Below are positions 3,758 through 62,302 of a stretch of DNA of 64,000 nucleotides, piece after piece. A model generated the notes under the pieces. It saw nothing but the letters and a program-made list of their open reading frames with translations, was not told where the DNA came from and searched no databases. Numbering within the stretch: the stretch's first letter is position 1; every line of letters begins with the position of its first letter. A program made the translations under genes and the position numbers. The stretch comes from an uncultured Planctomycetia bacterium. GTDB taxonomy: Bacteria; Omnitrophota; Gorgyraeia; CAYWPX01. The stretch spans positions 83,116 to 147,115 of the forward strand of contig CAYWPX010000004.1 of assembly GCA_964460615.1 (NCBI GenBank). The letters are read 5' to 3'.

Positions 3758-4038
3758 TACTTAGATTTTTTTGATTTTTTACCGTTAGCCGCAAAATAAT
3801 TATACAATAGAGCTATAAGCCACCCTGTAGCAAACCCCTCGGCAAAACCATAACAAAGGCCTATTATGGCCCCATCAGAAGTTATCAGATATCCCGGCAT
3901 AAGCGAGCCGACTGTCGAGAGAAGAAAGCTTTTTGCGATAATCTTGTCGGACCATATAGAGATCATTGTCATCAGATAAATTGTGATGCCATTGAGTATC
4001 CCAAGCGCAAAACCAAATGCCCTTTTATTAAGTTCCAT
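3757..4038 (-). CDS. small integral membrane protein (2-3 TM helices), function unknown
   Basis: 93 aa hydrophobic ORF; stop overlaps nagA start (TAATG); AAGGAGG RBS upstream. Confidence 0.5.
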   Translation of the reverse strand: MELNKRAFGFALGILNGITIYLMTMISIWSDKIIAKSFLLSTVGSLMPGYLITSDGAIIGLCYGFAEGFATGWLIALLYNYFAANGKKSKKSK

Positions 4039-4117
4039 TATTCCTCCTTTTAAGTGTACAGCGATCAGTGTACAGTGATCAGTTAAGCTTAATAGCTAAA
4101 CTTTTTTCCAAACCACC

Positions 4118-5831: not shown

Positions 5832-5879
5832 ATTATACCCCTGATTTATTTATTTCATTTTCGTAGTAATGTTTTTCTT

Positions 5880-5915
5880 TTGCTATGAGCTATGAGCTAT
5901 GAGCTATGAGCTAAT
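5880..5915. repeat. TATGAGC heptamer tandem array (4.5 copies) in tpx-DJ-1 spacer
   Basis: ctatgagctatgagctatgagctatgagcta; same heptamer arrays (direct and inverted) at 19296-19390, 27820-27880, 30653-30700, 43577-43670, 51274-51399, 60705-60750, 62233-62302, often flanking a GC-rich hairpin. Confidence 0.75.
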
Positions 5916-7053: not shown

Positions 7054-7086
7054 GTCCCGAGTCCGCCTATGGCGAGACGAGGGACT
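7054..7086. promoter_or_regulatory. conserved hairpin motif TCGCCATAGGCGGAYTCGGRACGA upstream of sor; second copy upstream of moxR (35859-35890)
   Basis: minus-strand GTCCCTCGTCTCGCCATAGGCGGACTCGGGACGA vs GTTCCATATTTCGCCATAGGCGGATTCGGAACGA. Confidence 0.5.
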
Positions 7087-7866: not shown

Positions 7867-8003
7867 ATCTCCTCCGATTTTAAATTTGTTTCATGTCACA
7901 GGTCTCATGTCACAAGTTATATATTTTTCGTTTTAACCTGTGGCTTGCAGCCAAAGGAAGTCCCGAAGATTTATTGAGGGACGACTTGTGACTTGCAGCA
8001 TTT

Positions 8004-8195
8004 CTATTTTCTCTTCATCGTTTTGCCACAACAGATTATATCGCACGTGTCAACACATCCGCATATCTCATCGACTTTTACTACCATGCCGCATTTATAG
8101 CATTTAAGCTTGCTTCCCTTTTTAAGGGTTTTTTTGGATGTCTTCTTTATGGATTTTTTTACTGTCTTCTTTGCTCTTTTTTTTACTTTCTTCAT
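8004..8195 (-). CDS. small Lys-rich/Cys-rich metal-binding protein with YHS/TRASH-like CGM motif
   Basis: 63 aa: K-rich N-terminal 28 aa then CYKCGMVVKVDEICGCVDTCDIICCG; GGAGAAG RBS 8 nt upstream; directly downstream of the flavodiiron gene. Confidence 0.45.
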   Translation of the reverse strand: MKKVKKRAKKTVKKSIKKTSKKTLKKGSKLKCYKCGMVVKVDEICGCVDTCDIICCGKTMKRK

Positions 8196-8255
8196 TGTAA
8201 TCTTCTCCTGGTTTTAAAGCTTGAAGCCTGAAGCATGCGACCCCTGCGGGGCATT

Positions 8256-12281: not shown

Positions 12282-13238
12282 TTAAATGCCCGAAGCCTTT
12301 ATAACTTTTTTTATCGCTTCGGCTGAGAATATTAATTCATTTTCTTCTTTTTTGTTAAGTCCTATATTTAAAACTTCCCTTATCCCGTCTTTATTAACCA
12401 CCGCCGGAAGGCTGAGATAAACATCTTTTATCCCGAGATATCCGTTAACCAGGTTTGATACCGGAAGTATAGAATTCTGGTCTTTAAGTATCGCTTCTGT
12501 TATTTTTACAAGTGCAAGGCCAATACCATAAGAAGTCTCGTGCTTTCTCTCGATTATTTTATATGCTGAATCTCTGACTTCCTTGAAAATCCCGTTAAAA
12601 TATGCCTCCTTATCGCAGGTATCCTTGTCTTTGCAAAAAAGACAAAAATCATCTATGGGAACTCCGCCAATCATTGCCTTACTCCATACTGCAAACTCTG
12701 TATCACCATGCTCTCCGAGAATATAAGCATGCACATTCCTCGGATCTACGTGGCAATGATGGCTGATCATAAATCTAAATCTTGCCGAATCAAGGACAGT
12801 CCCCGACCCTATGACCTTATTAGAAGGCTTGCCCGAAAGTTTATAGGCAGCATATGAAAGAACATCGATAGGATTTGTAACAACGAGTATAATTGAATCG
12901 GGAGAATTTTTCATGATCTGGGGAATAATATCCCTGTAAAGCCCTACATTATCCTTTGCCAGGTCCATGCGCGTCTGGCCGTCTTTTTGTTTTTTCCCGG
13001 CTGTTATCACTACCAGATCAGAATCTACGATATCTTTATAGTCTCCTGCAATAATATGGCACGGGGAGATAAACGGCGCGCCATGCGATAGGTCCATAAC
13101 CTCGCCTTCTGCCCTTCGTTTATCAGCGTCTATCATTACAATCTCGCGGGCAATGCCCTTCATTAAAAGAGCATACGCATATCGCATCCCGACATTACCG
13201 GCACCTATAATTGAAACTTTTGGTTTTAATAATTTCAT
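12282..13238 (-). CDS. L-lactate/malate dehydrogenase (LDH-like family)
   Basis: VSIIGAGNVG Rossmann start, catalytic HG..., 318 aa. Confidence 0.85.
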   Translation of the reverse strand: MKLLKPKVSIIGAGNVGMRYAYALLMKGIAREIVMIDADKRRAEGEVMDLSHGAPFISPCHIIAGDYKDIVDSDLVVITAGKKQKDGQTRMDLAKDNVGLYRDIIPQIMKNSPDSIILVVTNPIDVLSYAAYKLSGKPSNKVIGSGTVLDSARFRFMISHHCHVDPRNVHAYILGEHGDTEFAVWSKAMIGGVPIDDFCLFCKDKDTCDKEAYFNGIFKEVRDSAYKIIERKHETSYGIGLALVKITEAILKDQNSILPVSNLVNGYLGIKDVYLSLPAVVNKDGIREVLNIGLNKKEENELIFSAEAIKKVIKASGI

Positions 13239-13552
13239 TTAAATTCCTGTTTTCGATTTTCGGTTTTCGGTTTGCGTTGAACGTAAACCGAAAACCGTTA
13301 ATCGTTTTTTATTAAAATCAAACTAACTTAGTAAATAATTTAATATCCTCTCCGCAAAAAAAATGGGTAGTTTAACGTCTTGCCCAACCCCGACGTTAAT
13401 TTATTATTAGGTCGGGGCTCCGACCTACCTAAGGCAACATCGGGTAGCATCGGAGGACTACTTCAACAGCCTTCTTTGCAATGAGCCATTTCTCGTACTA
13501 AATACGACACATTCTTTACGTTCTTTTTCATTTTTATCACCCCTTTACAATC

Positions 13553-13940
13553 CAACCGAATGCATGAAAATTATTTTGGATCTTTTCATCAAAAAAATTT
13601 TCATGTTTCTTATGAGGTTGGATAACTCCTCAATAACCCAACTGAATGTATTAAAATTATTTTGAATCTTTATATCAAAAAAATTTTAACACTTCTTACC
13701 CTCTGCAATTCGAAGAATTGCGAGGACTTAGTCCCGGAAATGCTACGCATTTCACGGGGTGAAACTGGGCATATCTTCGATCCAGCTGAATGTGCTAAAA
13801 TTATTTCGGAGGTTTTTATCGAAAGAATTTTAGTACTTATTATGAAGCTGGATAATTCCTTTAAAACCCAGCCGAATATACTAAAATTATTTTGGTTTTT
13901 TCATCAAAAGAATTTTAGTACATGTTATGAGGCTGGGTAT
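13553..13940. repeat. four tandem ~88-nt imperfect-palindromic repeats in an 800-nt non-coding gap
   Basis: units begin CCARCYGAATG... AAAATTATTTYGG ... AATTTTAGTAC ... TTATGAGGCTGG at ~13553, 13641, 13782, 13869; fifth copy at 15411-15481. Confidence 0.75.
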
Positions 13941-14050
13941 ATTTTCAATTCAACCGGACTTTATATCATTATACCTTTTTTACCCTTATGCAGCAATGCC
14001 TAAAGGTACCTAATAATTGACTTTTTTCGCCTTTTTTCTTACATTCAAAC

Positions 14051-15337
14051 CTATTTTAATATGCTCTTTAAATCTTCTTTGGCAGTTGTTATCAAATGAA
14101 GATCAAATTTTTCCTGCAATATCCCCATCACGTTTTTTGATATAAAAGCAGGAGCAGTCGGTCCTATGTATATGCCTTTTATGTTAAGATATAATAGACT
14201 CAATAATATTGCAACTGCTTTCTGTTCAAACCAAGAAAGTACCATAGTCAGCGGCAATTCGTTTACTCCAACATTAAATGCTTTTGAAAGCGCCAGAGCG
14301 ACCTGGATCCCAGAATACGCATTATTGCACTGGCCTATATCAAGAAGTCTTGGGATCCCATCGATGTTCCCGAAATCATATTTATTGAACCTGTACTTAC
14401 CGCAGGCTACCGTAAGTATAACGCAATCTTTGGGTACACTTAAAGCAAAATCTGTATAGTAATTTCTTCCCGGTTTTGCTCCATCGCATCCGCCGATCAA
14501 AAAGAAATGTTTTATCTTCCCGGATTTTACTGCATCAATTATTTTATCAGCGATCCCGAGTATTGCCGTATGGTGAAATCCCGTCATGATCTTTTTACCC
14601 GGCGCTTCCGGCAGCCCCGGCAAAGACTTGGCCAATCTTATTAGTTCTGTAAAATCCCTGTTTTTTATATGCTTAGCGCCCGGAATACCCGTAACATTTT
14701 TCGTAAATAACCTGTCCAGATATGAATTTTCCGGCGGTATCAGAACACAGTTAGTTGTAGCAAGTATTGCGCCGCTAAATTCATTAAACTCTTTTTTTTG
14801 TTCTTGCCACGCTCCGCCGTAATTCCCAACCAGATGTTTAAATTTTTTTAGTTCCGGATAGCCGTGCGCCGGAAGCATTTCACTATGTGTATAGATATTA
14901 ATTCCTTGCCCCTCGGTCTGCTTCAATAATTCATACAGGTCCAGAAGGTCATGCCCCGTTACTAAGATACCCGGGCCCTTTCTTGTCCCTGTCTCTACTT
15001 CCGTCGGGACCGGATTGCCGAACTCCTCTGTGTGAGCCTTATCCAATAGCTCCATGACCCTCAGATTCATCTGGCCGCATTTTAGGACCATCTCAAGGTG
15101 CTGATTAAGGTCAAAGCTCACGTTCGTAATTGTCTTAAAAAGCGCTTCGTGCATAAAAGCATCAACCTCTTCGTCTTTTGCGCCCAATTCTCTAGCATGA
15201 TATGCATAGGCGGCAATGCCTTTTAGCCCGTATAAAAGTATATCCTGCAAGCTCTGAATATCTTCATTCTTTCCGCAAACACCTACTTTTGTGCAGCCGC
15301 TTCCGCCTGCTGTCTGTTCACACTGATAGCAAAACAT
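14051..15337 (-). CDS. hcp: hybrid-cluster protein (hydroxylamine reductase), short class
   Basis: MFCYQCEQT...GVCGK N-terminal cubane Cys cluster; 428 aa; AAGGAGG RBS. Confidence 0.92.
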   Translation of the reverse strand: MFCYQCEQTAGGSGCTKVGVCGKNEDIQSLQDILLYGLKGIAAYAYHARELGAKDEEVDAFMHEALFKTITNVSFDLNQHLEMVLKCGQMNLRVMELLDKAHTEEFGNPVPTEVETGTRKGPGILVTGHDLLDLYELLKQTEGQGINIYTHSEMLPAHGYPELKKFKHLVGNYGGAWQEQKKEFNEFSGAILATTNCVLIPPENSYLDRLFTKNVTGIPGAKHIKNRDFTELIRLAKSLPGLPEAPGKKIMTGFHHTAILGIADKIIDAVKSGKIKHFFLIGGCDGAKPGRNYYTDFALSVPKDCVILTVACGKYRFNKYDFGNIDGIPRLLDIGQCNNAYSGIQVALALSKAFNVGVNELPLTMVLSWFEQKAVAILLSLLYLNIKGIYIGPTAPAFISKNVMGILQEKFDLHLITTAKEDLKSILK

Positions 15338-15354
15338 TTAAACCTCCTTAATGG

Positions 15355-15404
15355 CCCCTACCGTTTTGATTCGCTTTTGCGAATGCAAAACGAATCAGTA
15401 GGGG
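15355..15404. promoter_or_regulatory. 48-50-nt near-perfect palindrome in hcp leader; second copy at 54467-54514
   Basis: CCCCTACCGTTTTGATTCGCTTTTGCGAATGCAAAACGAATCAGTAGGGG, 5 nt before AAGGAGG RBS of hcp; near-identical copy upstream of gltB-like gene. Confidence 0.6.
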
Positions 15405-15410
15405 GAATTA

Positions 15411-15481
15411 CTTCGTCGAATGTGTCAAAATTATCAGATATTTTTATATCTGAAAATTTTGATACTTTTTATGAGACGAAG
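15411..15481. repeat. solitary copy of the 88-nt hairpin repeat in hcp upstream region
   Basis: cttcgtcgaatgtgtcaaaattatcag...ctgaaaattttgatactttttatgagacgaag, internally palindromic. Confidence 0.65.
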
Positions 15482-15511
15482 TTATCTTAATTGGTCCCTT
15501 TTTAGGGACGA

Positions 15512-16237
15512 CTACAAATAAATCTCTTCGGCAAGTTCCTTGCCTTTTTTTGTCAGCATTACTTTATCAATAAGATCTTTAAGCTTATCCTTATCTTTCA
15601 GGTCAAATTCATCTTTTATATTTACCAGCCAATCCGCATCGGTTAAAATCCTGAAATTCGTTGTATCTATAGCATTGAGAGTATGATGATGAGCAATGAT
15701 CTCGCAAACCTCTTTAATATCATTTTTCTTCAACCCGACTTCTAACATTATTTTCTCGGCAATTTTTGGACCTTCCATCTCCTGATACTTACCGGCATTG
15801 GATCCATATTTCTCTTCGGCAGCCTTTATGCCAACATCATGGAGAACGCTTGCCGGTATAACTATATTCCAGTCGCCTCCCTCAGCTCTAAGTATAATTT
15901 CAGCATACTCCAAAACTTTTTTTGCATGATTTATTCGTTTTAAATCGCTTCCAAAGTAAGTTTCAAGCTCTTTAATAAGTTTTTCTTTTAAAGTACATGA
16001 TTTTGTTTCCATAAACTCATTATATGTTTTTGCGCCGATGCATTCCTTGGCGTAATTGCACCAATTTATGCAGCTTTTGTCTCCCTCGGCTTTAAAAACA
16101 GTCTTTCCGCAGTTGGTGCAAAGTGTTTTTATCTCGTCAGACCATATCTCGACATTTTCACCGCAAAACTGGCACCTGATCTCTTCGGGCTTAGGTTCTC
16201 TAAAATCTTTCGCTCCCGGACAATGATTATTAAACAT
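15512..16237 (-). CDS. HD-domain phosphohydrolase with N-terminal Cys-rich zinc-ribbon region
   Basis: N-terminal CxxC..CxxC..C motifs; C-terminal VLHDVG ... IIAHHH HD motifs. Confidence 0.6.
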   Translation of the reverse strand: MFNNHCPGAKDFREPKPEEIRCQFCGENVEIWSDEIKTLCTNCGKTVFKAEGDKSCINWCNYAKECIGAKTYNEFMETKSCTLKEKLIKELETYFGSDLKRINHAKKVLEYAEIILRAEGGDWNIVIPASVLHDVGIKAAEEKYGSNAGKYQEMEGPKIAEKIMLEVGLKKNDIKEVCEIIAHHHTLNAIDTTNFRILTDADWLVNIKDEFDLKDKDKLKDLIDKVMLTKKGKELAEEIYL

Positions 16238-16297
16238 TGGTTTTTCTCTTTTTTAATTTTTCGATGTACTATGTACGAAGTACGATATACTGTTTTT

Positions 16298-17158
16298 CTA
16301 CACCCATTCTTCGCTTAATATTTCTCCTTCAATGCTCACAACGATAGCTTTAACCGGAATTTTCCTTTTTGCCCGGCTGGCCGCTGATTTCGCAAGATTC
16401 AACAAACCGCCACAACACGGAACCTCCATAATCATTACGGTAATGGTATTTATCTTCGCATCATCTATCAGCTGAATAATTTTTTCTTCATATATTTCAA
16501 GCCCTTCGTCAAGTTTCGGGCATGCTATTGCCAGAGATTTACCTTTTAAAAAACCGGTATGAAAATTTCCCAGGGCGTATGCCACGCAGTCTGCCGAAAG
16601 TACTACATCGGCATTCTTAAAATATGACGCTCCCGGATTAACTAAATGCAGTTGCACCGGCCATTGCCTGAGCTTTGATTTTACATCTATTTTTTCATCT
16701 ATGGGTGCCGATGAAACATCCTTTTTTCTAAAATCCATTGCCTTTGATCCCGGGCAAGGCGAAAAACCGTGTGCATGCATAGATCTTATCCCTTCATTTT
16801 CTTTTAACGGGTTTTCCAAATTATTTTCTTCCAGGTATTTAATAGCTTCTTTTAAATATTCTGACTCATTATGGTCTTTTAAATGCAAAAGGTGAGCAAT
16901 CATGACATTTTTACCCTGTTTTACGATATTAGCCATAACCTTAGATTCATCGTACTTTTCTGCAACTCTCTCCTCTATATATATAGCGCCCAGGGGGCAA
17001 TGCCCGATACAAGCACCCAATCCATCGCAAAATAAGTCGCTTATTAGCCTCGCCTTTCCATCAATTATCTGGAGCGCCCCTTCAGGACAATTGGGGATAC
17101 AACTGCCGCAACCGTTGCACTTTGTTTCATCAATGTTAATTATTTTTCTTTTTGACAT
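16298..17158 (-). CDS. 4Fe-4S dicluster ferredoxin-domain protein with C-terminal CCG-like Cys motif
   Basis: CNGCGSCIPNCP and CDGLGACIGHCP then C-x35-CCGG (half CCG-domain-like); start abuts stop of the Rrf2 gene. Confidence 0.55.
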   Translation of the reverse strand: MSKRKIINIDETKCNGCGSCIPNCPEGALQIIDGKARLISDLFCDGLGACIGHCPLGAIYIEERVAEKYDESKVMANIVKQGKNVMIAHLLHLKDHNESEYLKEAIKYLEENNLENPLKENEGIRSMHAHGFSPCPGSKAMDFRKKDVSSAPIDEKIDVKSKLRQWPVQLHLVNPGASYFKNADVVLSADCVAYALGNFHTGFLKGKSLAIACPKLDEGLEIYEEKIIQLIDDAKINTITVMIMEVPCCGGLLNLAKSAASRAKRKIPVKAIVVSIEGEILSEEWV

Positions 17159-17566
17159 CTAGCCCTCATTATTTATAAGAGACCCTATACTTACACCTTT
17201 TAACTCATCAAATACTTTCTTTTCTATAGAATCAATTTTCTTTTTCAAAGCACAGGTAGCTCTGTTAGGACAAAGCTTTTTTTTGAAAAAACACTCATTA
17301 AGCCTGAGTCTTCCCTGAAAGATTTGTATCAGGTCCGTGATCAGGATTTTTTTGGCCGGCCTTACCAGCTTAAATCCGCCGCCTATTCCCTTATAAGACG
17401 CGAGCAGACCCGCTTTATTCAGTTTCTGAAGTATCTTCCTTAAAAATGGCCTTGGTATCTTGAGCGTCTTAACCATCTCCGCAACGCTTACGAGCCTGTC
17501 CTCAGAACTTGCCATATACGAAACCGCTCTTACGGCATAATCTGTATCTCTTTTAATTAATTTCAT
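17159..17566 (-). CDS. Rrf2-family transcriptional regulator (IscR/NsrR-like, three-Cys Fe-S site)
   Basis: N-terminal wHTH (DYAVRAVSYMA...), C-terminal NECFFKKKLCPNRATC. Confidence 0.85.
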   Translation of the reverse strand: MKLIKRDTDYAVRAVSYMASSEDRLVSVAEMVKTLKIPRPFLRKILQKLNKAGLLASYKGIGGGFKLVRPAKKILITDLIQIFQGRLRLNECFFKKKLCPNRATCALKKKIDSIEKKVFDELKGVSIGSLINNEG

Positions 17567-19294: not shown

Positions 19295-19390
19295 ATAATT
19301 CAGCTCTTGGCTCTTGGCTCATGGCTAGAGCTCATAACAAATAAGAAAACTAAAAACAATCCTATGAACTATGAGCTATGAACTAAATTG

Positions 19391-23609: not shown

Positions 23610-23635
23610 GGCTTCTCCTTTTTTATGCTTCTATT

Positions 23636-23679
23636 ACAAATAAAAAATCCAATTATCATTCTAAGTCGATAATTGGATT
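23636..23679 (-). terminator. terminator/attenuator hairpin 27 nt upstream of the 1021-aa gene start
   Basis: 12-bp perfect stem AATCCAATTATC..GATAATTGGATT followed by UUUUUAUUU on minus strand. Confidence 0.45.
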
Positions 23680-23824
23680 GGTTTATAGTATATTACTTTA
23701 GCTCTATATATCATGTTCTACCGTTTATTCGGTTTTATTAATCTGTTTCTAAGTAGATATTATGATACTATAGGCCATATATTATATCAAATGAATTATC
23801 TAGATTTTTTGTATCCTAACAAAC

Positions 23825-24058
23825 CTAATCAACTTGTTTTTTTCTAAAAAAAGTAGCTTTTACCCAGCTCCAGTTCAAATATAAGTGTATCAATATCAAT
23901 AAGGATAGCAAAAAACCGTTATATTCATGCACTTCTCCGATAAATCCCATTATTTTTTTGAATAAATGGAACGCCAGTATGATGCCTGTTGAGATCTGTA
24001 TAATTGCTGATACAAAAAGAATAGGATTTACTATCTTAAGCGCCTTTTGCTTATCCAT
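23825..24058 (-). CDS. small membrane protein, hypothetical
   Basis: 77 aa, two hydrophobic helices. Confidence 0.4.
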   Translation of the reverse strand: MDKQKALKIVNPILFVSAIIQISTGIILAFHLFKKIMGFIGEVHEYNGFLLSLLILIHLYLNWSWVKATFFRKKQVD

Positions 24059-24114
24059 ATTTACCTCTCGTCTGGTTTTTTGTCTGAATTCTATTCTCTT
24101 TTATCTGTCTTCTG

Positions 24115-25236: not shown

Positions 25237-25503
25237 CTATCGCTTTCCACTAAATTTAAGTTCAACAAGTTTGGCGCTTACGCCGCTTATTGAATTTAGT
25301 TTTTTTTCTATTTCTTTTCTTTTGGACTTTGTACCCACAAGCTCAAGGATTATGAGCCCGGTATCGGAGCATCTATCAAGCACCCCGTCATGTATCCCAA
25401 GCCTTGTCTTAATATAACAGCCTTCTTTGGTAAATATCTTCTGCACTTTTGAAATAACCGAACGCCTCTGGGTTATGCTGATCACCAATACACCTTTATC
25501 CAT
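25237..25503 (-). CDS. small ACT-like domain protein (possibly TM1266-type iron-only hydrogenase system regulator family)
   Basis: 88 aa beta-alpha-beta-beta-alpha-beta pattern; abuts REC-EAL gene; family assignment tentative. Confidence 0.35.
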   Translation of the reverse strand: MDKGVLVISITQRRSVISKVQKIFTKEGCYIKTRLGIHDGVLDRCSDTGLIILELVGTKSKRKEIEKKLNSISGVSAKLVELKFSGKR

Positions 25504-25535
25504 TCGGCACCTCCTATGATATGAAGCTTTTTTTG

Positions 25536-30652: not shown

Positions 30653-30694
30653 TTTTTATAGCTTTTCTTTTGACTATGAACCATGAGCTATGAG

Positions 30695-34628: not shown

Positions 34629-34708
34629 CGTACATCGTTAAAATTAGTCTTTTTGCAAAATACGATATACGATGTACTATGTACCTGCCTCGCCCATGGG
34701 CGAGGCGT

Positions 34709-35716
34709 TTAAGGTACTTCCACTTCATCAAATATTCTTTTAATTATATCGTCCGAAGTTTTCTCTTCGGCTTCAGCTTCATAACTTGCTATAACCCTGT
34801 GCCTAAGGACATCGGGACCTATGGATTTGACATCTTGAGGAGTGACATAGCCTCTTCCTTGAATAAATGCATATGCCTTTGAGGCCAACGTCAGATATAT
34901 ACTCGCCCTTGGAGAAGCGCCATATTGGATCAGCCCTTCAAGATCGTTTAACTTGTATTTTTTCGGGTCTCTTGTGGCAAAAACTATATCAAGGATATAC
35001 TTTTCTATTTTTTCGTCAGTATATATCTCGTCTATAACTTGCCTGGCCTTTATAATTTGGTCCGGCGTAACTACGGGGTTAACCCCTATTTTTTTATCGG
35101 TATAGCCCATTCTCTTTAAAATTCTATGTTCTTCATCAAGACTGGGATAAGTGATATTGACTTTTAGCATAAACCTATCAACTTGGGCCTCCGGAAGAGG
35201 ATAAGTTCCCTCCTGTTCTATCGGATTTTCGGTTGCCATAACGAGAAACGGATCATCAAGTTTATAAGTATGTTCGCCTATGGTTACCTGCCTTTCCTGC
35301 ATCGCCTCCAATAATGCGCTCTGGACTTTTGCAGGAGCCCTGTTTATCTCATCAGCCAGGATGATATTAGAAAATATCGGGCCTTTTTTAGTAGTAAAAT
35401 TCCCGTCTTTCGGATTAAAGATAAGAGTTCCTATTAGATCGGCCGGAAGCAAATCCGGAGTGAACTGTATCCTCTGGAATTTAGTTTTTATTGCCTGGGA
35501 AAGAGTTTTTATCGAAAGTGTTTTGGCAAGGCCGGGGACACCTTCAACAAGTATGTGGCCATTTGCCAATAACCCCACCAAAAGTCTTTCAATAAGATAC
35601 CTTTGGCCTACTATTACCTTTTCAATTTCGCTTATGAGCGTATAGACAAATACGCTTTCTTTTTTTATCTTCTCATTTATCGCTGTTATGCCTTCTCCTA
35701 TCATAATATACCTCAC
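34709..35716 (-). CDS. moxR: MoxR-family AAA+ ATPase
   Basis: Walker A GVPGLAKT, Walker B/sensor, 335 aa. Confidence 0.9.
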   Translation of the reverse strand: MRYIMIGEGITAINEKIKKESVFVYTLISEIEKVIVGQRYLIERLLVGLLANGHILVEGVPGLAKTLSIKTLSQAIKTKFQRIQFTPDLLPADLIGTLIFNPKDGNFTTKKGPIFSNIILADEINRAPAKVQSALLEAMQERQVTIGEHTYKLDDPFLVMATENPIEQEGTYPLPEAQVDRFMLKVNITYPSLDEEHRILKRMGYTDKKIGVNPVVTPDQIIKARQVIDEIYTDEKIEKYILDIVFATRDPKKYKLNDLEGLIQYGASPRASIYLTLASKAYAFIQGRGYVTPQDVKSIGPDVLRHRVIASYEAEAEEKTSDDIIKRIFDEVEVP

Positions 35717-35736: not shown

Positions 35737-35863
35737 GGGGTTAGTCCTTCCTATCATTTAAGGAAGTGACTTATCCCACAAGGGTAGTCCTTCCTATCAT
35801 TTAAGGAAGTGGCTTATCCCACAAGGGTAGTCCTTCCTATCATTTAAGGAAGTGACTCGTTCC
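35737..35863. repeat. three tandem 42-43-nt direct repeats immediately upstream of moxR (Bat operon)
   Basis: GGGTAGTCCTTCCTATCATTTAAGGAAGTGACTTATCCCACAA x3, each containing CTTCCT..AGGAAG inverted core. Confidence 0.8.
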
Positions 35864-36771: not shown

Positions 36772-36860
36772 TTTTTTCTCGTACGGCGTCTTTAGTACGG
36801 CGTACTGCGTTAAAATTTTTCTTTTTCGCTGTACACAATACTCCGTACGCCGTACTTCTT
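36772..36860. repeat. GTACG-family hairpin cassette (arm1 - A-rich loop GAAAAAGAAAAATTTTAACG - arm2) between acsB and cooC
   Basis: arm1 GTACGGCGTACGGAG pairs with arm2 CAGTACGCCGTAC; homologous cassettes at 497-603, 2533-2623, 4039-4117, 16238-16297, 34629-34708, 39057-39162, 40393-40462, 51676-51734. Confidence 0.7.
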
Positions 36861-39056: not shown

Positions 39057-39162
39057 TTATTTTACCTCCAAATTATTTTTAGTACTTCGTCGTTCGTACT
39101 TCGTACATCGTTTTTTATTTTTCTTTTTCGATATACGCTATGCGATGTACGATGTACGGTTT
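39057..39162. repeat. GTACG-family hairpin cassette between cooS-like gene and acsB
   Basis: arm1 GTACATCGTACATCG, loop GAAAAAGAAAAATAAAAAACG, arm2 CGATGTACGAAGTAC; same architecture, different arm sequence with preserved pairing. Confidence 0.7.
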
Positions 39163-40392: not shown

Positions 40393-40462
40393 ATCTTTTC
40401 CTTTTTATTTAATATTTTTTGGTTTTTTCGAAATACGATGTACTATGTACGAAATACTGCTT

Positions 40463-41642: not shown

Positions 41643-42998
41643 CTAGTTTTTTAAGTCACCAACCTTTTTAATATATTTATCTATATCAAATTTTCTTCTT
41701 AACCCAGCCTCGTTCATGAATCTAATTTTGCCGAAAATCTTTCTCTCGCCCCAAGCCCTGTCATGTTTTCCAAAACACCACGCTACTCCCGTAAAACCAT
41801 TCGGGTCCCGTCCGTCAAGTTCGTACTTATTATTAAGATAAAGAGCTCTTTTAAATGCATCTTCAGGGGTTTGGGACCACTCAAGTATTTTTTTCCCCCA
41901 ATACATCCTCATATATCCGTGCATCTTACCGGTAATAACCATCTCTCTTTGAGCTGCATTCCAGGCTACGTCATGTGTTTTGGCGTTTTCAAGATCCGGC
42001 AGGCTGTAGGCATAATTCCTCTTATCGCCCTTATGTTCATATAAAGTTTTTTTGGCCCAATTAGGCAATCCTTCAAACGAATCGTAATTTTTATTATAAT
42101 AAATATAATTAAGGCTCAGTTCCCGCCTTATTATAAGTTCTTCGAGGTATGCTGATCTTGCCTTTGACCTTGACCGCATTACTTTTAGCGCAATATATAA
42201 AGGCGAGATCTGGCCAAAATGCAGATAAGGGCTCATATTTGACAGATAATCAACCGATGGATCATTCCTCAGGTCATTAAAATGATTTATTTTTCTTTTA
42301 AGAAAATTATTCAGATGCCTTTTTGCCTCATTCGTCCCCCCGTGAAAATACCCGGAACTCGGGACCTTTTTATCAATATCTAAGGATCGAACCAATCTAT
42401 CAATATTTTTCAAAGATAGCGAACCAATTTTAATATCAAGCGATTTTCTAGCTGGGCGATTTGTTTTTAAGCCTGTGACATATTTCTCTAAGCATCTATT
42501 TATTTTAGGCCTTATAGTGGCAGCGCTGAATTCCTCTTTTGTTGAGGCAACTTCAACAGGCACTACACAATCGCTTTCAACTTCTACCAGCTGGCAGTCA
42601 ATTTTTTTTGCGGCTTCATCTCTCCATGATCGCTGTATCTTCAGATACCCTCTGTCAGCTACTACAAGGCACGCTCTTTTTGATAATTTTATCGCACCGG
42701 CCTCGGGATCATTTTTGATAATTACAAACTTGCCCCCTAATTTTCTTAGCCCCGATTCCACCTCTTTTAAACCCTCGAGCATAAAATAATAATGCCTTAA
42801 ATTCGCTTCCGGGAAATTATCTGTAAGCCCAAAATAGACAACGAGCGGTTTTTTTAAACTATTCGCTTTTAATATGGCATATTGAAGTGCATGGTTATAC
42901 TCAACCCTTTGGGAGGCCTGCATCCAGTAAATTACATAATCCCTGTTGAGCACCGGATTATCATTTAAAAATTTTAACCGCTCTTTTTGAATCATCAA
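41643..42998 (-). CDS. class II CPD photolyase (FAD-dependent DNA photolyase)
   Basis: VIYWMQASQRVEYNHALQYA, RNDPSVDYLSNMSPYLHFGQIS, YELDGRDPNGFTGVAWCFGKHDRAWGER match class II photolyase blocks. Confidence 0.8.
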   Translation of the reverse strand: MMIQKERLKFLNDNPVLNRDYVIYWMQASQRVEYNHALQYAILKANSLKKPLVVYFGLTDNFPEANLRHYYFMLEGLKEVESGLRKLGGKFVIIKNDPEAGAIKLSKRACLVVADRGYLKIQRSWRDEAAKKIDCQLVEVESDCVVPVEVASTKEEFSAATIRPKINRCLEKYVTGLKTNRPARKSLDIKIGSLSLKNIDRLVRSLDIDKKVPSSGYFHGGTNEAKRHLNNFLKRKINHFNDLRNDPSVDYLSNMSPYLHFGQISPLYIALKVMRSRSKARSAYLEELIIRRELSLNYIYYNKNYDSFEGLPNWAKKTLYEHKGDKRNYAYSLPDLENAKTHDVAWNAAQREMVITGKMHGYMRMYWGKKILEWSQTPEDAFKRALYLNNKYELDGRDPNGFTGVAWCFGKHDRAWGERKIFGKIRFMNEAGLRRKFDIDKYIKKVGDLKN

Positions 42999-43576: not shown

Positions 43577-43670
43577 GTCTATGCCTTTAATTAAAAACGA
43601 TTTTTTTCTATGAGCTCTGCCTGCCTACGGCTTTGCCGTGAAGCAGGCGAAACTATGAGCCATGAGCTAA

Positions 43671-48117: not shown

Positions 48118-48317
48118 TGCTTTGTTTCAAGCTCTTTGGGTTTTCTCGGGATCAAGAGCCACATAACTAGATACACGACTATCCCAAACCCCCAAAGAAG
48201 AGTAATTAAGATAAAAAGGATCCTAAAAAACACGGGATCCTTGTCAAAGTACTCTCCCAGGCCTCCGCAAACACCCGCAATTTTCCGGTCAGTGTTAGAA
48301 AGATATAATCTTTTCAT
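48114..48317 (-). CDS. PspC-domain membrane protein
   Basis: LYLSNTDRKIAGVCGGLGEYF PspC motif plus one TM; 67 aa; start overlaps deaminase end. Confidence 0.6.
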   Translation of the reverse strand: MKRLYLSNTDRKIAGVCGGLGEYFDKDPVFFRILFILITLLWGFGIVVYLVMWLLIPRKPKELETKH

Positions 48318-48330
48318 GGGAATATTAAAT

Positions 48331-49365: not shown

Positions 49366-49526
49366 TATTCCTTTATTAATTTATATTGTAGCAATATTAG
49401 CATAATAAGGCTGGATAGGCAATATTTTTTGTTCAAAGATAGCCGCCAGGATTGAGCAAAAAAGTACGTGCAGAATAAAAAAGCGGCCAATTTATTCAAT
49501 TGGCCGCCAAGTAGATCAGGTACTAA

Positions 49527-51258: not shown

Positions 51259-51399
51259 GTAAATGCCTTTCATTTAGCTCTTAGCTCATGGTTCATGGCT
51301 CATAGTAAAACCAAGAATTATATAATATGGGTTTTTAGTTTTTGCTATGAGCTCTGGCTGCCTCGCCGTAGGCGAGCAGGCGAAGCTATGAGCAATGAG

Positions 51400-51666
51400 C
51401 TACTTTACATACCCGCACCCCGGGTATGGTTTTGCTTTTCTTAAGACATCTTTTATCTCTACACAATTAAAAACTTTTCCGGATATGGTCTTTTGCGGCC
51501 CCAGCCTGGAATCATAAGCTACGCAAAAATAATGGCCGAACGCATCTTTTGAGAGGTTTTGGCATGGATCGGTAGATGCACCGCAACACTCACCGCATCG
51601 AATGCACTTCGCTTCTTCCGCTAGGTGTTTTTCTTCTAGTTTTTTATTATAAAGTTTATCATCCAT
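51400..51666 (-). CDS. YkgJ-family Cys-rich Fe-S/zinc protein (CxxCxxCC)
   Basis: CIRCGECCG motif plus downstream Cys; tracked ORF begins at GTG, ATG at 51666 preferred. Confidence 0.55.
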   Translation of the reverse strand: MDDKLYNKKLEEKHLAEEAKCIRCGECCGASTDPCQNLSKDAFGHYFCVAYDSRLGPQKTISGKVFNCVEIKDVLRKAKPYPGCGYVK

Positions 51667-51734
51667 AATTAGCACATCGACCTTCGTACATCGTACTTCG
51701 TATTTAGTTTTTGCTATGTACTAAGTACGATATA

Positions 51735-52487: not shown

Positions 52488-52546
52488 AATTAACTCAATT
52501 TTTTATATATTTTATCATAAACCCAAATTTTACAGTAGTGAAATTT

Positions 52547-52685
52547 GCCCCCTACAATCCGAAGGATTGAGGGGAGCCCCGAAGGGGTTGCGCAACAAAA
52601 TCCTCGTAGGATTTTGTTGGCTTCGCAAGGTAATCCCGGGTTTTGTATACGCTATTTTGTTCAACCGCAAAATCCGGGACAAAAA
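52547..52685 (-). ncRNA. candidate structured small RNA (4 consecutive hairpins, two UUCG tetraloops on minus strand)
   Basis: minus strand: GTCCCGGATTTTG..CAAAACCCGGGAT; CAACAAAATCCTACGAGGATTTTGTTG; CCCCUUCGGGG; CCCCTCAATCCUUCGGATTGTAGGGGG; lies between gltB-like terminator and pgeF start. Confidence 0.4.
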
Positions 52686-52695
52686 CTTATTTATA

Positions 52696-52733
52696 ACAAA
52701 AAAAAGCACCCTTAGATCCTAAGGGTGCTTTTT
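52696..52733 (-). terminator. rho-independent terminator of the gltB-like gene
   Basis: 14-bp perfect stem AAAAAGCACCCTTA/TAAGGGTGCTTTTT followed by U8 on minus strand. Confidence 0.75.
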
Positions 52734-52748
52734 AATAAAAATAAATTC

Positions 52749-54341
52749 TTATTTACCCATTAAAACCTTTTCGGCCTCTTTTCTATATGCATCCATTACA
52801 TAAGGAATGCCGGTTACATCTTCGCATTCTTTAGTAAGGCTCATAAGGTCTCTTCTGGATATGGTAGGCAAGCTAAAATTCCTCGAACCGGCCATCAATT
52901 GCTGCAGGCCAACCTTTATTCTCTGGGAGAATGTGTATATGCCGACCGCCCCCAAAGGAATGTCTTTCATATCGCTTCCGTATTTTTCTTCCAGTTCTTC
53001 GTAAGAAACAAATATCTCTTCCGGCTTCATGCCAAATTCAGAGATAGTAACAGGCAGATTGCCTGATTTTATCCATTCTCCGATATTTCGCCCGACAAAC
53101 CCAGGTATCATAAGGGCTCTACCCATGCAGACAGCTTTTACATATGGGGCTCCTAGGGCAAGTACCTTGAATACATGATCCTCAAGAGAAAATCCGCCGG
53201 CTATCGCTAGATCCGGGATCCTCTTCCCTTTTTTAGCCAGCTTTTCGGCAAATTCAATCGCAAGGGACTGCAGATAAATGGTAGGTATGCCCCACTCCTG
53301 CATCATTCGCCATGGGCTCATACCCGTTCCTCCGGGCGCGCCGTCAATTGTCAACAGATCTATCTTTGCCTCAGATGAAAATCTCATTGCCTGGGCAACC
53401 TCTACCATTGAATAGGCACCCGTCTTAAGAGTGATCCTTTTGAACCCGAGATCCCTTAAACGTTTAATTTCCTTCATAAAACCATCTTCAGATACAAACC
53501 CAAGCCTTGAGTGCCTTTCAAATTCTTTTATGGCGCCCGCTTTAAAAGCTTCTTGATTAGCCTTTAAGGATGGGTCCGGAGTTACTATATAACCGCGTTT
53601 TTTTAGTTCAAGGGCTCTTTCAAGGCTTTTTACTTTTATTTCCCCGCCTATACATTTAGCCCCTTGTCCCCACTTCAGTTCTATTGTATCTAGTTTATGT
53701 TTTTTTCTTACATATTCAGCAACCCCAAGACGGGTATCCTCGACGTTCATCTGGACCAGTATTTCACCGTAACCGTCATGGAATCTTTTGTATAGCTCGA
53801 TCCTTCTATCCATATCAGGAGCCGATGTGATCTTACCCTTACTATCCAGTTCCAGCTTGGGATCTATACCGCAGACATTTTCGCCGCATACTATAGTAAC
53901 GCCCGATATCGCAGCGCCTATGGCAAAGTGTTCCCAGTTTTTCCTGGCTATTTCAGTTGAGCCAAGCGCCCCGGTAAATATAGGCACTTTCATCTTTACC
54001 TTTTTCTCCCAGCCGTATTCAGTTTCGGTGTTTACTGCAGGGAAGATCGCTGTATCGGGGTTACCTTCTGTGCCTTTAGGAAGCCCTTTCGCACCCTGGG
54101 CATACCCCTGGATATTTAAATGAGAATAATCAACCGGATAATCTTTATCTCCTCCGGCAGTCATCTCTCCAAACGGCCCTGGATATATGACCTCTCTTCC
54201 TCTGAATGAGGATTTGAATACTTCGCAGTTACCTTTACAATTTTCAAGGCATCTTGAGCAAAGGCCTGAAGAAGGTACTACATTTTTTGAACGGTTAAAC
54301 GTACGCGAGGCGTCATTGCCTCCGGGACTTCTTAAGTTCAT
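52749..54341 (-). CDS. standalone glutamate-synthase FMN-domain (GltB domain 2) family protein with N-terminal Cys cluster
   Basis: CSRCLENCKGNCEV N-terminus; GAPGGTGMSPW and FMN/TIM-barrel blocks of GltB central domain; 530 aa. Confidence 0.75.
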   Translation of the reverse strand: MNLRSPGGNDASRTFNRSKNVVPSSGLCSRCLENCKGNCEVFKSSFRGREVIYPGPFGEMTAGGDKDYPVDYSHLNIQGYAQGAKGLPKGTEGNPDTAIFPAVNTETEYGWEKKVKMKVPIFTGALGSTEIARKNWEHFAIGAAISGVTIVCGENVCGIDPKLELDSKGKITSAPDMDRRIELYKRFHDGYGEILVQMNVEDTRLGVAEYVRKKHKLDTIELKWGQGAKCIGGEIKVKSLERALELKKRGYIVTPDPSLKANQEAFKAGAIKEFERHSRLGFVSEDGFMKEIKRLRDLGFKRITLKTGAYSMVEVAQAMRFSSEAKIDLLTIDGAPGGTGMSPWRMMQEWGIPTIYLQSLAIEFAEKLAKKGKRIPDLAIAGGFSLEDHVFKVLALGAPYVKAVCMGRALMIPGFVGRNIGEWIKSGNLPVTISEFGMKPEEIFVSYEELEEKYGSDMKDIPLGAVGIYTFSQRIKVGLQQLMAGSRNFSLPTISRRDLMSLTKECEDVTGIPYVMDAYRKEAEKVLMGK

Positions 54342-54466: not shown

Positions 54467-54514
54467 CCCCTACTGATTCGTTTTGCTCTGCAAAAGCGAA
54501 TCAAACCATAGGGG
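54467..54514. promoter_or_regulatory. second copy of 48-nt palindrome, ~130 nt upstream of gltB-like gene start
   Basis: cccctactgattcgttttgctctgcaaaagcgaatcaaaccatagggg. Confidence 0.6.
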
Positions 54515-54568
54515 TTAATTCGCACTAATAATTTATGTTGGTTACGCCTGCCATAAATTATGTGCTCA

Positions 54569-59614: not shown

Positions 59615-59825
59615 ATGATACCCTCAAAGAAGATAAATATGGCGGCCCGACCACATGAAAAACCTCTGGAAGTCTTTGGTAACTTCCAGACCCTTTAACG
59701 ATAAATATATATTCCAATTTTACATAATTACTAAAATAAAATCAAGCGAATATAATAAATCTTTCTTAGCTCATACTTGCCCTACGGCTTTGCAATAAGG
59801 CAGTGCAGCAGACTAGAAAAAGTTT

Positions 59826-60605: not shown

Positions 60606-60659
60606 ATCGACAGCTTTCTATTTATGGTACTCGTTATTATATCAATTAAACAAATTTTA

Positions 60660-60704
60660 TCAATATAAAACACTAAATGCCTGATCAATTTCGATCAGGC
60701 ATTT
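60660..60704 (-). terminator. terminator after gltD
   Basis: AAATGCCTGATC..GATCAGGCATTT 11-bp stem then U-rich tract on minus strand. Confidence 0.6.
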
Positions 60705-60750
60705 ATTTAATTCTTACCATGAGCTAAGAGCAATGAACTATGAGCTAATT

Positions 60751-62193: not shown

Positions 62194-62235
62194 TTTATCC
62201 TCGTGCAATTTATTTAGAAGCTCTTGGCTCATAGT

Positions 62236-62291
62236 AAAAAAACCATGAGCTCTGCCTGCCTCGCTGTAGGCGAGCAGGCGAAACTATGAGC
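62236..62291 (-). terminator. terminator after gltB (GC hairpin of TATGAGC family plus U7)
   Basis: stem GCCTGCCTCGC..GCGAGCAGGC flanked by inverted CTCATAG units then TTTTTTT on minus strand. Confidence 0.6.
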
Positions 62292-62302
62292 TATGAGCTA
62301 AA

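Follow-up and report, generated by a model that had tools for sequence, protein, structure and literature searches.

Tandem hairpins between hcp and ldh belong to a structured palindromic repeat family dispersed in the intergenic DNA of Omnitrophota

What are the hairpin repeats that occupy a long non-coding gap between hcp and ldh in an uncultured bacterium of the Omnitrophota, and have they anything to do with those two genes? The gap lies in 64 000 nt of contig CAYWPX010000004.1 (assembly GCA_964460615.1), a stretch that we call the window. At 812 nt it is the largest gap in the window and plainly stands out, as a preliminary description of the sequence had said, although the coding density given there as ~95% is 87% when taken from open reading frames (ORFs) of at least 100 aa. 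We find that the repeats are members of a previously undescribed family of structured palindromic repeats, dispersed in the intergenic DNA of Omnitrophota. The reading that we prefer, at a little better than even confidence, is that this is a dispersed palindromic repeat of the general kind of the repetitive extragenic palindrome (REP), the Correia element or the MITE (miniature inverted-repeat transposable element), which has been amplified at this locus and is passively transcribed as generic intercistronic hairpins.

A repeat search of the 64-kb window reveals five copies of a hairpin of ~75 nt, all in a single orientation and in register, with start-to-start distances of 86, 144, 86 and 1544 nt. 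Four self-complementary units run head to tail inside the hcp–ldh gap, and the fifth lies between the gene for an HD-domain protein and hcp. The period of the array is 86 nt, comprising the ~75-nt hairpin and an 11-nt spacer, where 88 nt had first been reported. In the list that follows + marks the strand that reads 5′ to 3′ in the family model (the model orientation), and the local genes are on –; the z-scores of the unit folds are relative to dinucleotide shuffles.

13550–13624, +: c1, intact hairpin (–24.5 kcal/mol, z –5.3; 96.5 bits)
13636–13699, +: c2, truncated hairpin (74.7 bits; 38.8 bits with the family model)
13700–13779, no strand: non-repeat segment between c2 and c3 (–31.3 kcal/mol, z –4.5)
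13780–13854, +: c3, intact hairpin (97.2 bits)
13866–13940, +: c4, intact hairpin, with the hcp stop codon 110 nt away (–29.4 kcal/mol, z –8.0; 90.4 bits)
15409–15483, +: c5, hairpin between the stop codon of the HD gene (27 nt away) and the hcp start (–31.2 kcal/mol, z –8.2; 87.5 bits)
13662–14003, +: 113-aa ORF across repeat units (no Pfam family)

The repeats are real, and far beyond chance. Folded individually, the intact units c1, c3, c4 and c5 each form one long, stable hairpin of –24 to –31 kcal/mol with z-scores of –5 to –8. The window copies are mutually 72–88% identical, and a covariance model built from the five of them scores those copies at 75–97 bits (E = 1e-12 to 1e-17); with filters off, the same model finds no sixth copy in the window. 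Among these five sequences alone there are double compensatory changes at 13 of the 26 predicted pairs. An independent Logan assembly, SRR12487046, carries c5, c4 and c3 and ends inside the array. Thus the four tandem hairpin repeats of the preliminary description, and its fifth copy near hcp, are borne out by repeat search, covariance model, folds and independent assembly. The ~85-nt palindromic insert placed there between copies 2 and 3 is indeed extra hairpin DNA, but it resolves into two small GC-rich hairpins in the 80 nt at 13700–13779, unrelated to the unit (CUCUGCAAUUC-GAA-GAAUUGCGAGG and CCCGGAAAUGC-UAC-GCAUUUCACGGGG), and the 3′ outer arm and AUGA core of c2 are lost, being replaced from 13700 onwards. 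The 137 nt at 13550–13686 match 13780–13916 at 73%, with a spacing of 230 nt, and c1 resembles c3 while c2 resembles c4. The array therefore looks like a duplicated dimer (c1–c2 giving c3–c4).

Could the gap be coding after all, either as a real coding region or as the remains of a degraded pseudogene? A plus-strand ORF of 113 aa does exist, but it has no match in Pfam and is built of repeat units; it lies on a strand that carries no other independent gene of at least 100 aa, all the other genes being on the opposite one. Moreover the units are conserved through base-pair covariation, with no codon-like conservation. The ORF is a translated-repeat artefact, as had been supposed, and we give the coding explanation a negligible chance.

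How general is the hairpin? A loose pattern scan of GTDB genomes gave at least 120 matches, mostly due to chance in AT-rich genomes, to which a stem-complementarity filter was applied. Among the matches listed two are then genuine (L014 and L074), both in metagenome-assembled genomes labelled Candidatus Omnitrophota. A stricter pattern matched 24 metagenome contigs, of which 21 are confirmed by the covariance model, so that a search beyond the window places the unit in these two genomes and 21 contigs. The other three (L136, L138 and L139) score only 18–26 bits and have no outer stem, and we take them as chance matches or very remote relatives. There is no match among viral contigs. The alignment holds 29 members, and four weaker matches bring the total to about 33 elements, with 24 loci outside the window. 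At gathering threshold no Rfam 15 family matches the repeat in a scan of the window or in scans at permissive settings that covered the gap and GC-rich family members; the permissive scans return only sub-threshold miRNA-like hairpin noise and tRNAs. Full-text literature searches found no earlier description of such a repeat in Omnitrophota.

The element is an imperfect hairpin of ~75–85 nt. Its foot is an 8-bp outer stem of free, covarying sequence (CCAACC/GGTTGG, CCAGCU/AGCUGG, CCAGCC/GGCUGG and UUCGUC/GACGAA, and also CCCGCC/GGCGGG), and this variable stem is followed by GAAU … UUAUGA. Above the outer stem there is a symmetric GA/GA internal loop in the context 5′-Y-GA-R-3′, a candidate for tandem sheared G•A pairs, and then two pairs (A-U and U-A) and a 5-nt bulge of NNNUU on the 3′ strand. 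A variable stem of 4–5 bp above the bulge leads into a conserved AAAAUU/AAUUUU helix that is broken by an A•R mismatch (AAAAUU-R-U … A-R-AAUUUU), and the top of the hairpin is a variable apical stem-loop; many of the apical stems contain a second tandem, CGAAG/CUGAG. A kink-turn, in which a bulge of three nucleotides runs straight into tandem sheared G•A pairs with a canonical stem on the other side, was considered for the GA/GA core and rejected, as two Watson–Crick pairs separate the bulge from the G•A pairs, and the position needing to pair varies without covariation. A protein-binding palindrome in double-stranded DNA was likewise rejected, because AAAATT and AATTTT are separated by anything from 15 to about 31 nt.

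Covariation supports this structure. In the 29-sequence alignment 93.5% of cells pair, compared with 82% in shuffles and 33–50% when the partners are slid, and both sides have changed at 18 of the 26 pairs; none of 500 shuffles reaches the observed covariation. Nine of the ten pairs of the outer helix have changed on both sides, and the A13-U88 pair has become a compensatory G-C in the divergent member L014:131–206. The search patterns fixed GAATR, AAAATTRT, ARAATTTT and TTATGAR, so that part of the invariance of those letters is built in. The copies that only the model detected (L014:131–206, L125:4790–4930, L135:1212–1275 and L145:790–869) vary at the fixed letters, one model-only copy retaining the core by means of a compensatory change.

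Where in the genome is the element found? All copies of the family are extragenic. According to Pfam, the upstream neighbours include GcvT, a TadA-like deaminase, an AMP-binding enzyme, a chorismate-binding enzyme, GGDEF and TPR proteins, DUF212, a beta-CASP nuclease, a glycosidase, an SBF symporter, pilin-like proteins, glutamine synthetase and a histidine kinase, and the downstream neighbours GcvH, a PNP-type phosphorylase, DUF748/AsmA, an acyl-CoA dehydrogenase, an HMGL-like enzyme, YkuD, a Fis-type HTH protein and a SLOG protein; one element lies between gcvT and gcvH. At 17 loci outside the window, and at both sites within it, the element is found past the stop codon of a gene that runs on the other strand. 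The foot of the hairpin is usually 0–40 nt past that codon, and in eight of those loci it is 0–12 nt past or overlaps it. The model-5′ side usually carries, at most loci outside the window, AATT and a small hairpin of ~30 nt (GA(A)TTT…AAA(T)TC). Loci that are otherwise unrelated, such as L141 and L144 or L074 and L128, share this companion in conserved form, and thus outside the window the repeated unit is a two-hairpin composite of ~115–125 nt.

A second association is with tRNA genes. At 10 of the 24 loci ~28–32 nt separate the big hairpin from a tRNA gene end, and this interval is occupied by the small hairpin, which stops 0–3 nt short of the tRNA where the junction was read. A tRNA on the opposite strand is abutted at its 5′ end (L014a, L122, L142 and L145a, with a tRNA 5′ fragment in L133), and a tRNA on the same strand at its 3′ end (L014b, L125, L126, L137, L135b and L145b). 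In L145 and L135 a tRNA-Arg is bracketed by inverted copies. At L135:1385–1465 (–) and L133:170–290 (–) the first 8–21 nt of the tRNA gene are duplicated, with an insertion of 85–100 nt between the fragment and the intact tRNA; the insert in L135 is a long palindrome, GCGCCTGTCCCAGTATCTA…TAGATACTGGGACACGGCGC. These inserts look like a second kind of insertion element at tRNA 5′ ends.

Such positions raise the possibility of a module for RNA processing or stability that is selected by the host, with the big hairpin, a GAAUU linker and the small hairpin punctuating polycistronic transcripts. The reader would be a nuclease of the RNase III or RNase E type, or a dedicated RNA-binding protein, and the module would bracket tRNAs and separate cistrons, here hcp from its neighbours. 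The element just past the stop codon in many loci, the copy within the gcvT–gcvH pair, the tRNA-Arg flanked on both sides and the small hairpin that abuts the tRNA end all argue for such a role. RNase E prefers RN↓WUU, and the palindromic GAAUUC junction would fit this in either orientation. Evolution of the orthologous copies is compensatory too: between L122 and L135, and between L133 and L145, changes are either compensatory or confined to unpaired positions.

The turnover of the family is less easily reconciled with punctuation. Copies that are ~95% identical occur in different contexts, namely L124 (after a beta-CASP gene), L128 (pilin-like), L144 (glutamine synthetase) and L127 (TPR). 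L142 and L145 are syntenic along GGDEF-tRNAArg(acg)-TadA-tRNASer(gct), and three intergenic sites carry the element in only one of the two; its counterpart in the other is a canonical terminator (hairpin plus U-tract), heptamer repeats or a hairpin unrelated to it, the terminator being the one at the TadA–tRNASer site. Beside tRNA-Leu in L125 and L137 there are tandem arrays with progressively degenerate or half copies, and amplification is thus a recurrent property of the family. A punctuation module would hardly be expected to be swapped so freely at orthologous sites, to be tolerated as decayed and partial copies, or to be absent from 63 kb of related genomes. On this evidence, together with that of strand discussed below, we regard it as a real possibility, though a doubtful one.

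Is the array then connected with hcp and ldh? The genes are those named in the preliminary description, as Pfam confirms.

12282–13238, –: ldh, lactate/malate dehydrogenase (Pfam)
14051–15337, –: hcp, hybrid-cluster protein / hydroxylamine reductase (Prismane; Pfam and protein comparison)
15512–16237, –: HD-domain protein gene (Pfam)

The Hcp of the window is 100% identical to one NCBI/Logan protein, and the next matches, many of them named Candidatus Omnitrophota, are at 81–86%. Three lineages with 84–85% identical Hcp have compact Rrf2-(Fer4-x)-hcp-dfx/ahpC operons with gaps of only 2–15 nt around hcp, and the family model finds no member in ~63 kb of their non-redundant sequence. In the window, 14051–17566 is a cluster of Rrf2, 4Fe-4S protein, HD protein and hcp, with ldh after hcp. 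In the relatives (L146–L151) Rrf2-(Fer4-small ORF)-hcp is followed by desulfoferrodoxin, rubredoxin, flavodiiron and thioredoxin-reductase-like genes, and the hcp neighbourhood is a nitrosative/oxidative-stress island. An apparent synteny with L014, in which a 428-aa gene lies beside the element as hcp does here, was discarded, BLASTP showing no homology for either neighbour.

These comparisons bear on two proposals made at the outset, a cis-regulatory platform for hcp/ldh and a plus-strand array of small RNAs (sRNAs). Copies do lie on both sides of hcp, an Rrf2 regulator gene lies upstream, and the plus-strand folds are very stable. Elsewhere, however, the family stands beside unrelated genes, and it is not conserved at the hcp of relatives, where the operons are tight. 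Promoter- and terminator-like sites in the gap are not above chance (9 promoter-like sites, against 7.8 in shuffles), the window has no plus-strand genes, and no Rfam family matches. Both proposals are largely refuted, and we accord them very little probability. Two promoter candidates were also set aside: a minus-strand TTGCTG-N17-TATAAT seen by eye between hcp and c4 falls below the criteria of the promoter scan, and the conserved GAAATT beside tRNA 5′ ends is too near the tRNA to be a –10 box.

Which strand is transcribed, and is the element constrained as RNA or as DNA? Every window ORF of at least 100 aa that is not overlapped by a longer one is on the minus strand. As all neighbouring genes are on that strand, transcription of the array almost certainly yields the reverse complement of the model strand. 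Unlike a Rho-independent terminator the element has no U-tract on the gene strand, where the hairpin is followed by NNAAUU(Y) without a U-run, and none of the units yields a terminator-like site in the scan; canonical terminators are present elsewhere in the genome (gaps 52488–52748 and 49366–49526). G-U pairs make up ~2% of the total, 18 on one strand and 20 on the other. Wobble pairs so rare, and so equal between strands, point to palindromy at the level of DNA, unlike most structures that act only as RNA, and their scarcity would be atypical of a punctuation module. The same counts were uninformative when tried for strand assignment, and the C-A mismatches of one subclade are open to an equally good reading as a bulged A. 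The model strand is the more stable in 27 of the 29 members, by a mean of 3.9 kcal/mol, for which its purine-rich non-canonical features are responsible (the GA/GA core, the second CGAAG/CUGAG tandem and the A•R mismatch). The two orientations expose different unpaired bases, GA/GA in one and UC/UC in the other, and a single sequence-specific RNA reader cannot serve both, which is a further point against punctuation.

That the structured model strand is mostly antisense to transcription keeps another explanation alive. The hairpin might be a site in single-stranded DNA (ssDNA) for a recombinase or an HUH/Y1 transposase, following the logic of attC or of REP-RAYT/IS200-IS605 PATE; the strand with the tandem G•A core and the bulge would be recognized as folded ssDNA, and the RNA hairpin would be a by-product. 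The asymmetric non-canonical features do lie on the strand antisense to most neighbours, as in attC bottom strands, and that is the strand of greater stability. A unit of two different hairpins, with no terminal inverted repeat and no visible target-site duplication, would fit such a site, as would the polymorphic presence of the element and the orientation rule with its fixed distance of ~30 nt from tRNA ends, whichever the strand. Yet there is no GTTRRRY/RYYYAAC box, no GTAG/CGTC tag and no cassette structure, and the tandem copies are only 11 nt apart. No integrase or transposase turned up, although no systematic search was made, and where genes run with replication, GC skew suggests that the structured strand would be the leading-strand template, which is not usually exposed as ssDNA. 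We consider a site of this kind improbable.

How does the element compare with known systems? It works most like the REP/BIME and Correia elements, without their defining features. REP, BIME and REPIN sequences of Enterobacteria and Pseudomonas are mobilized by RAYT (Y1) transposases, and number tens to hundreds of extragenic copies per genome. Like them, the element is an extragenic imperfect palindrome, mostly just past stop codons, dispersed and sometimes clustered, and in all likelihood transcribed as a 3′ hairpin. In the account drawn on here a REP is a short (20–40 bp) imperfect palindrome tagged at one of its ends by the tetranucleotide GTAG or CGTC (PMC3733652), and known roles of the hairpins, in part from the same account, include mRNA stabilization and termination (PMC3733652). 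By contrast, the element is 75–85 nt in length and has no such tag, and the ends of its outer stem vary (ATCCAACC, ACTTCGTC, ATCCCGCC and others). Its clusters consist of direct tandem copies, whereas those of REP alternate in orientation; it is sparse (one locus in 64 kb here, none in 63 kb of relatives), and it has a conserved internal non-canonical core and a strong association with tRNA ends. No Y1_Tnp domain, and no RAYT gene, is found among the Pfam-scanned neighbours, a small sample of partial contigs.

The Correia/NEMIS elements of Neisseria and other MITEs are similarly ~100 nt, non-coding and intergenic, and form a long hairpin when co-transcribed. Correia hairpins are substrates of RNase III that alter mRNA stability, and it is by analogy with these that we propose a mechanism below. 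MITEs have terminal inverted repeats of conserved sequence, which the transposase of a parent IS recognizes, and target-site duplications, whereas the terminal stem of the element is free and covarying and its conserved part is internal. The 40-nt flanks of 29 copies share no direct repeat, and comparison of L142 with L145 gives no clean empty-site boundaries. Of the options first put forward for the array a MITE-like element comes closest to the evidence, with its dispersed, near-identical copies and patchy presence, but conserved terminal inverted repeats are lacking.

Other resemblances are more partial. The integron attC site is also a hairpin of conserved structure and variable sequence at or just past a stop codon, with a variable apex and conserved unpaired bases on the antisense strand. 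The element, however, lacks the R″/R′ boxes (RYYYAAC/GTTRRRY), its tandem copies are 11 nt apart, and its neighbours are housekeeping genes and tRNAs, with none of the promoterless gene cassettes that alternate with attC sites beside intI. The MIRUs of Mycobacterium are tandem with a period of 40–100 nt, lie between co-directional operon genes in fixed orientation and vary in copy number. The arrays described here are also tandem with a comparable period, and between co-directional genes, but MIRUs form no hairpins and couple translation through start and stop codons that overlap, whereas our units are self-complementary with covarying pairs. The RNase III hairpins of phage T7 type, which lie between cistrons and have a conserved asymmetric internal loop, are cut in such a way that the upstream mRNA keeps a protective stem at its 3′ end. 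Each is present once, in a locked orientation and within a single phage operon, in contrast to an element that is dispersed and lies in both orientations beside tRNAs. The RNA repeats of type III toxin–antitoxin systems (ToxI-like) would call for a terminator and a toxin gene after the repeats on the same strand, but there is no plus-strand gene of at least 100 aa save for ORFs overlapping minus-strand genes, and the next minus-strand gene is ldh. Nor is this a CRISPR array, in which near-identical repeats of 24–48 nt alternate with spacers of similar length; the units are 75 nt long and 72–88% identical, with 11-nt spacers.

The preferred explanation, a REP/Correia/MITE-like dispersed repeat, builds on the structure and its covariation, the dispersal over unrelated sites, the patchiness, the recurrent arrays and the absence from the hcp of relatives, all of which are observed. 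The family would spread or turn over at the level of DNA. One copy would have landed upstream of hcp, and the copy downstream would have been amplified through the dimer duplication of c1–c2 to c3–c4. The array would then be transcribed passively as the 3′ untranslated region of hcp or the hcp–ldh spacer, each transcribed unit forming a hairpin of ~30 bp that might act as a generic barrier to 3′ exonucleases or as an RNase processing site between cistrons. The hairpins would have no dedicated role as sensor or regulator for hcp or ldh.

Several points weigh against this. No target-site duplication, conserved terminal inverted repeat or associated transposase has been seen (no systematic search for a transposase was made), and a single locus in 64 kb here, and not one in ~63 kb from relatives, is a low density for a REP-like element. 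The abutment of tRNA ends in either orientation of the tRNA suggests a specific mechanism. The pattern of change in the aligned orthologous copies looks like purifying selection on structure, and favours a function for the host. The model strand, mostly antisense to transcription, nevertheless carries the conserved GA/GA core, which a passive role of the sense RNA leaves unexplained, and much of the invariance of the core is imposed by the search patterns. It is conceivable, if unlikely, that a dedicated protein reads the folded big hairpin and its companion, by way of the tandem G•A core and 5-nt bulge, as a mobile element targeting tRNA ends or as phylum-specific RNA punctuation. The former would be a non-autonomous bacterial element placed at tRNA ends and just past stop codons via ssDNA/RNA hairpins; the latter would be a phylum-specific signal at which polycistronic RNA is cut around tRNAs and cistrons. 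Both would amount to a new system, and not to another REP family.

The rest of the gap and the flanks of c5 contain further structures.

13254–13304, no strand: 25-bp hairpin of heptamer repeats (GTTTTCG x3.6 and complement; –26 kcal/mol, z –6.6)
13349–13470, –: GC-rich nested stem-loops with U8 at the minus-strand end (z about –2.1 to –2.6; read from sequence)
13463–13531, –: candidate small ORF of 22 codons, MKKNVKNVSYLVREMAHCKEGC (read from sequence)
15355–15405, no strand: small accessory hairpin, then GAATTA, immediately next to c5 on its model-5′ side
15494–15509, no strand: GTCCC-N6-GGGAC mini-hairpin just after the HD-gene stop, a third recurrent type of hairpin

The heptamer hairpin sits just upstream of the ldh ribosome-binding site. 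The GC-rich nested stem-loops reported at 13395–13470 are present, but their fold is only marginally better than that of shuffles (z –2.1 to –2.6); the stem-loops at 13349–13470 may, on weak support, be a terminator of the hcp transcript upstream of ldh. The 22-codon candidate has a purine-rich GGGGTG upstream, comes directly after c1 on the gene strand and is followed by the GC-rich stem-loops and the U8 run.

Some of these structures recur in the window. The ~50-nt hairpin at 15355–15405 (CCCCTAYNGTTTGATTCGCTTTTGC…GCAAAACGAATCAGTAGGGG) has an inverted copy at ~54472–54520; the two are on opposite strands, each beside GAATTA, and the second lies upstream of the gene at 52749–54341 with no big hairpin beside it. 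The GTCCC…GGGAC stem (often TCGTCCC-loop-GGGAC) occurs five times where 0.41 would be expected, at 7054–7085, 7960–7982, 15494–15509, 14985–15010 and 42334–42365; three of the five are intergenic and just after stop codons, and the stem also follows the big hairpin in metagenome loci L143, L134 and L124. Short tandem heptamer repeats, on the gene strand and starting a few nucleotides past the stop codon, are found in ~20 intergenic gaps of the window (e.g. 5832–5910, 16238–16297, 19295–19390, 30653–30694, 34629–34708, 36772–36860, 39057–39162, 40393–40462, 43577–43670, 51274–51734, 60606–60750 and 62233–62302), as well as at L142:8710–8755. The heptamers include GCTCATA x3–4, GTACATC, GTACGGC and GCTTCAG, and are often followed by an A-rich stretch and reverse-complement heptamers, or else flank a GC-rich hairpin. 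The sequence CTCATAGNTCAT occurs 15 times, compared with 1.1 expected, nearly always on the gene strand, and the gene-strand 5′ side of the big hairpin reads CCUCAUAA, resembling the commonest heptamer. The heptamer repeats may be more unusual than the hairpin family itself.

Elsewhere in the window a 43-nt tandem repeat at 35742–35857 (TAGTCCTTCCTATCATTTAAGGAAGTGACTTATCCCACAAGGG; 2.7 copies, 97% identical), with an inverted repeat within each unit, lies in a 299-nt gap upstream of the gene at 34709–35716. The only Rfam family in the window is an nhaA-I (Na+) riboswitch at 59637–59693 (–), which lies upstream of the gene at 57383–59614 and scores 53 bits where the gathering score is 37; there is no tRNA gene in the 64 kb. 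The gaps at 3758–4117, 7867–8255, 23610–24114, 25237–25535, 48118–48330 and 51274–51734 contain plausible small minus-strand genes with ribosome-binding sites (…aaaaggaggaataATG at about 4040 is one example), so that the real coding density exceeds 87% and the hcp–ldh gap stands out even more.

What does the family mean for the genomes that carry it? It probably embodies no new regulatory principle, and it is not what sets hcp or ldh apart. For annotation, the 812-nt gap is repeat DNA, neither a missing gene nor an hcp riboswitch, and such hairpin repeats are best masked before regulatory RNAs are sought in Omnitrophota genomes; tandem amplification also breaks short-read assemblies, as in the Logan contig that ends inside the array. 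The Omnitrophota are uncultivated, and their transcriptional organization and mobile DNA are almost wholly uncharted. For this phylum the family provides a well-supported structured motif, with 18 covarying pairs, that is missing from Rfam, and that shows an unusual, orientation-ruled adjacency of ~30 nt to both ends of tRNA genes.

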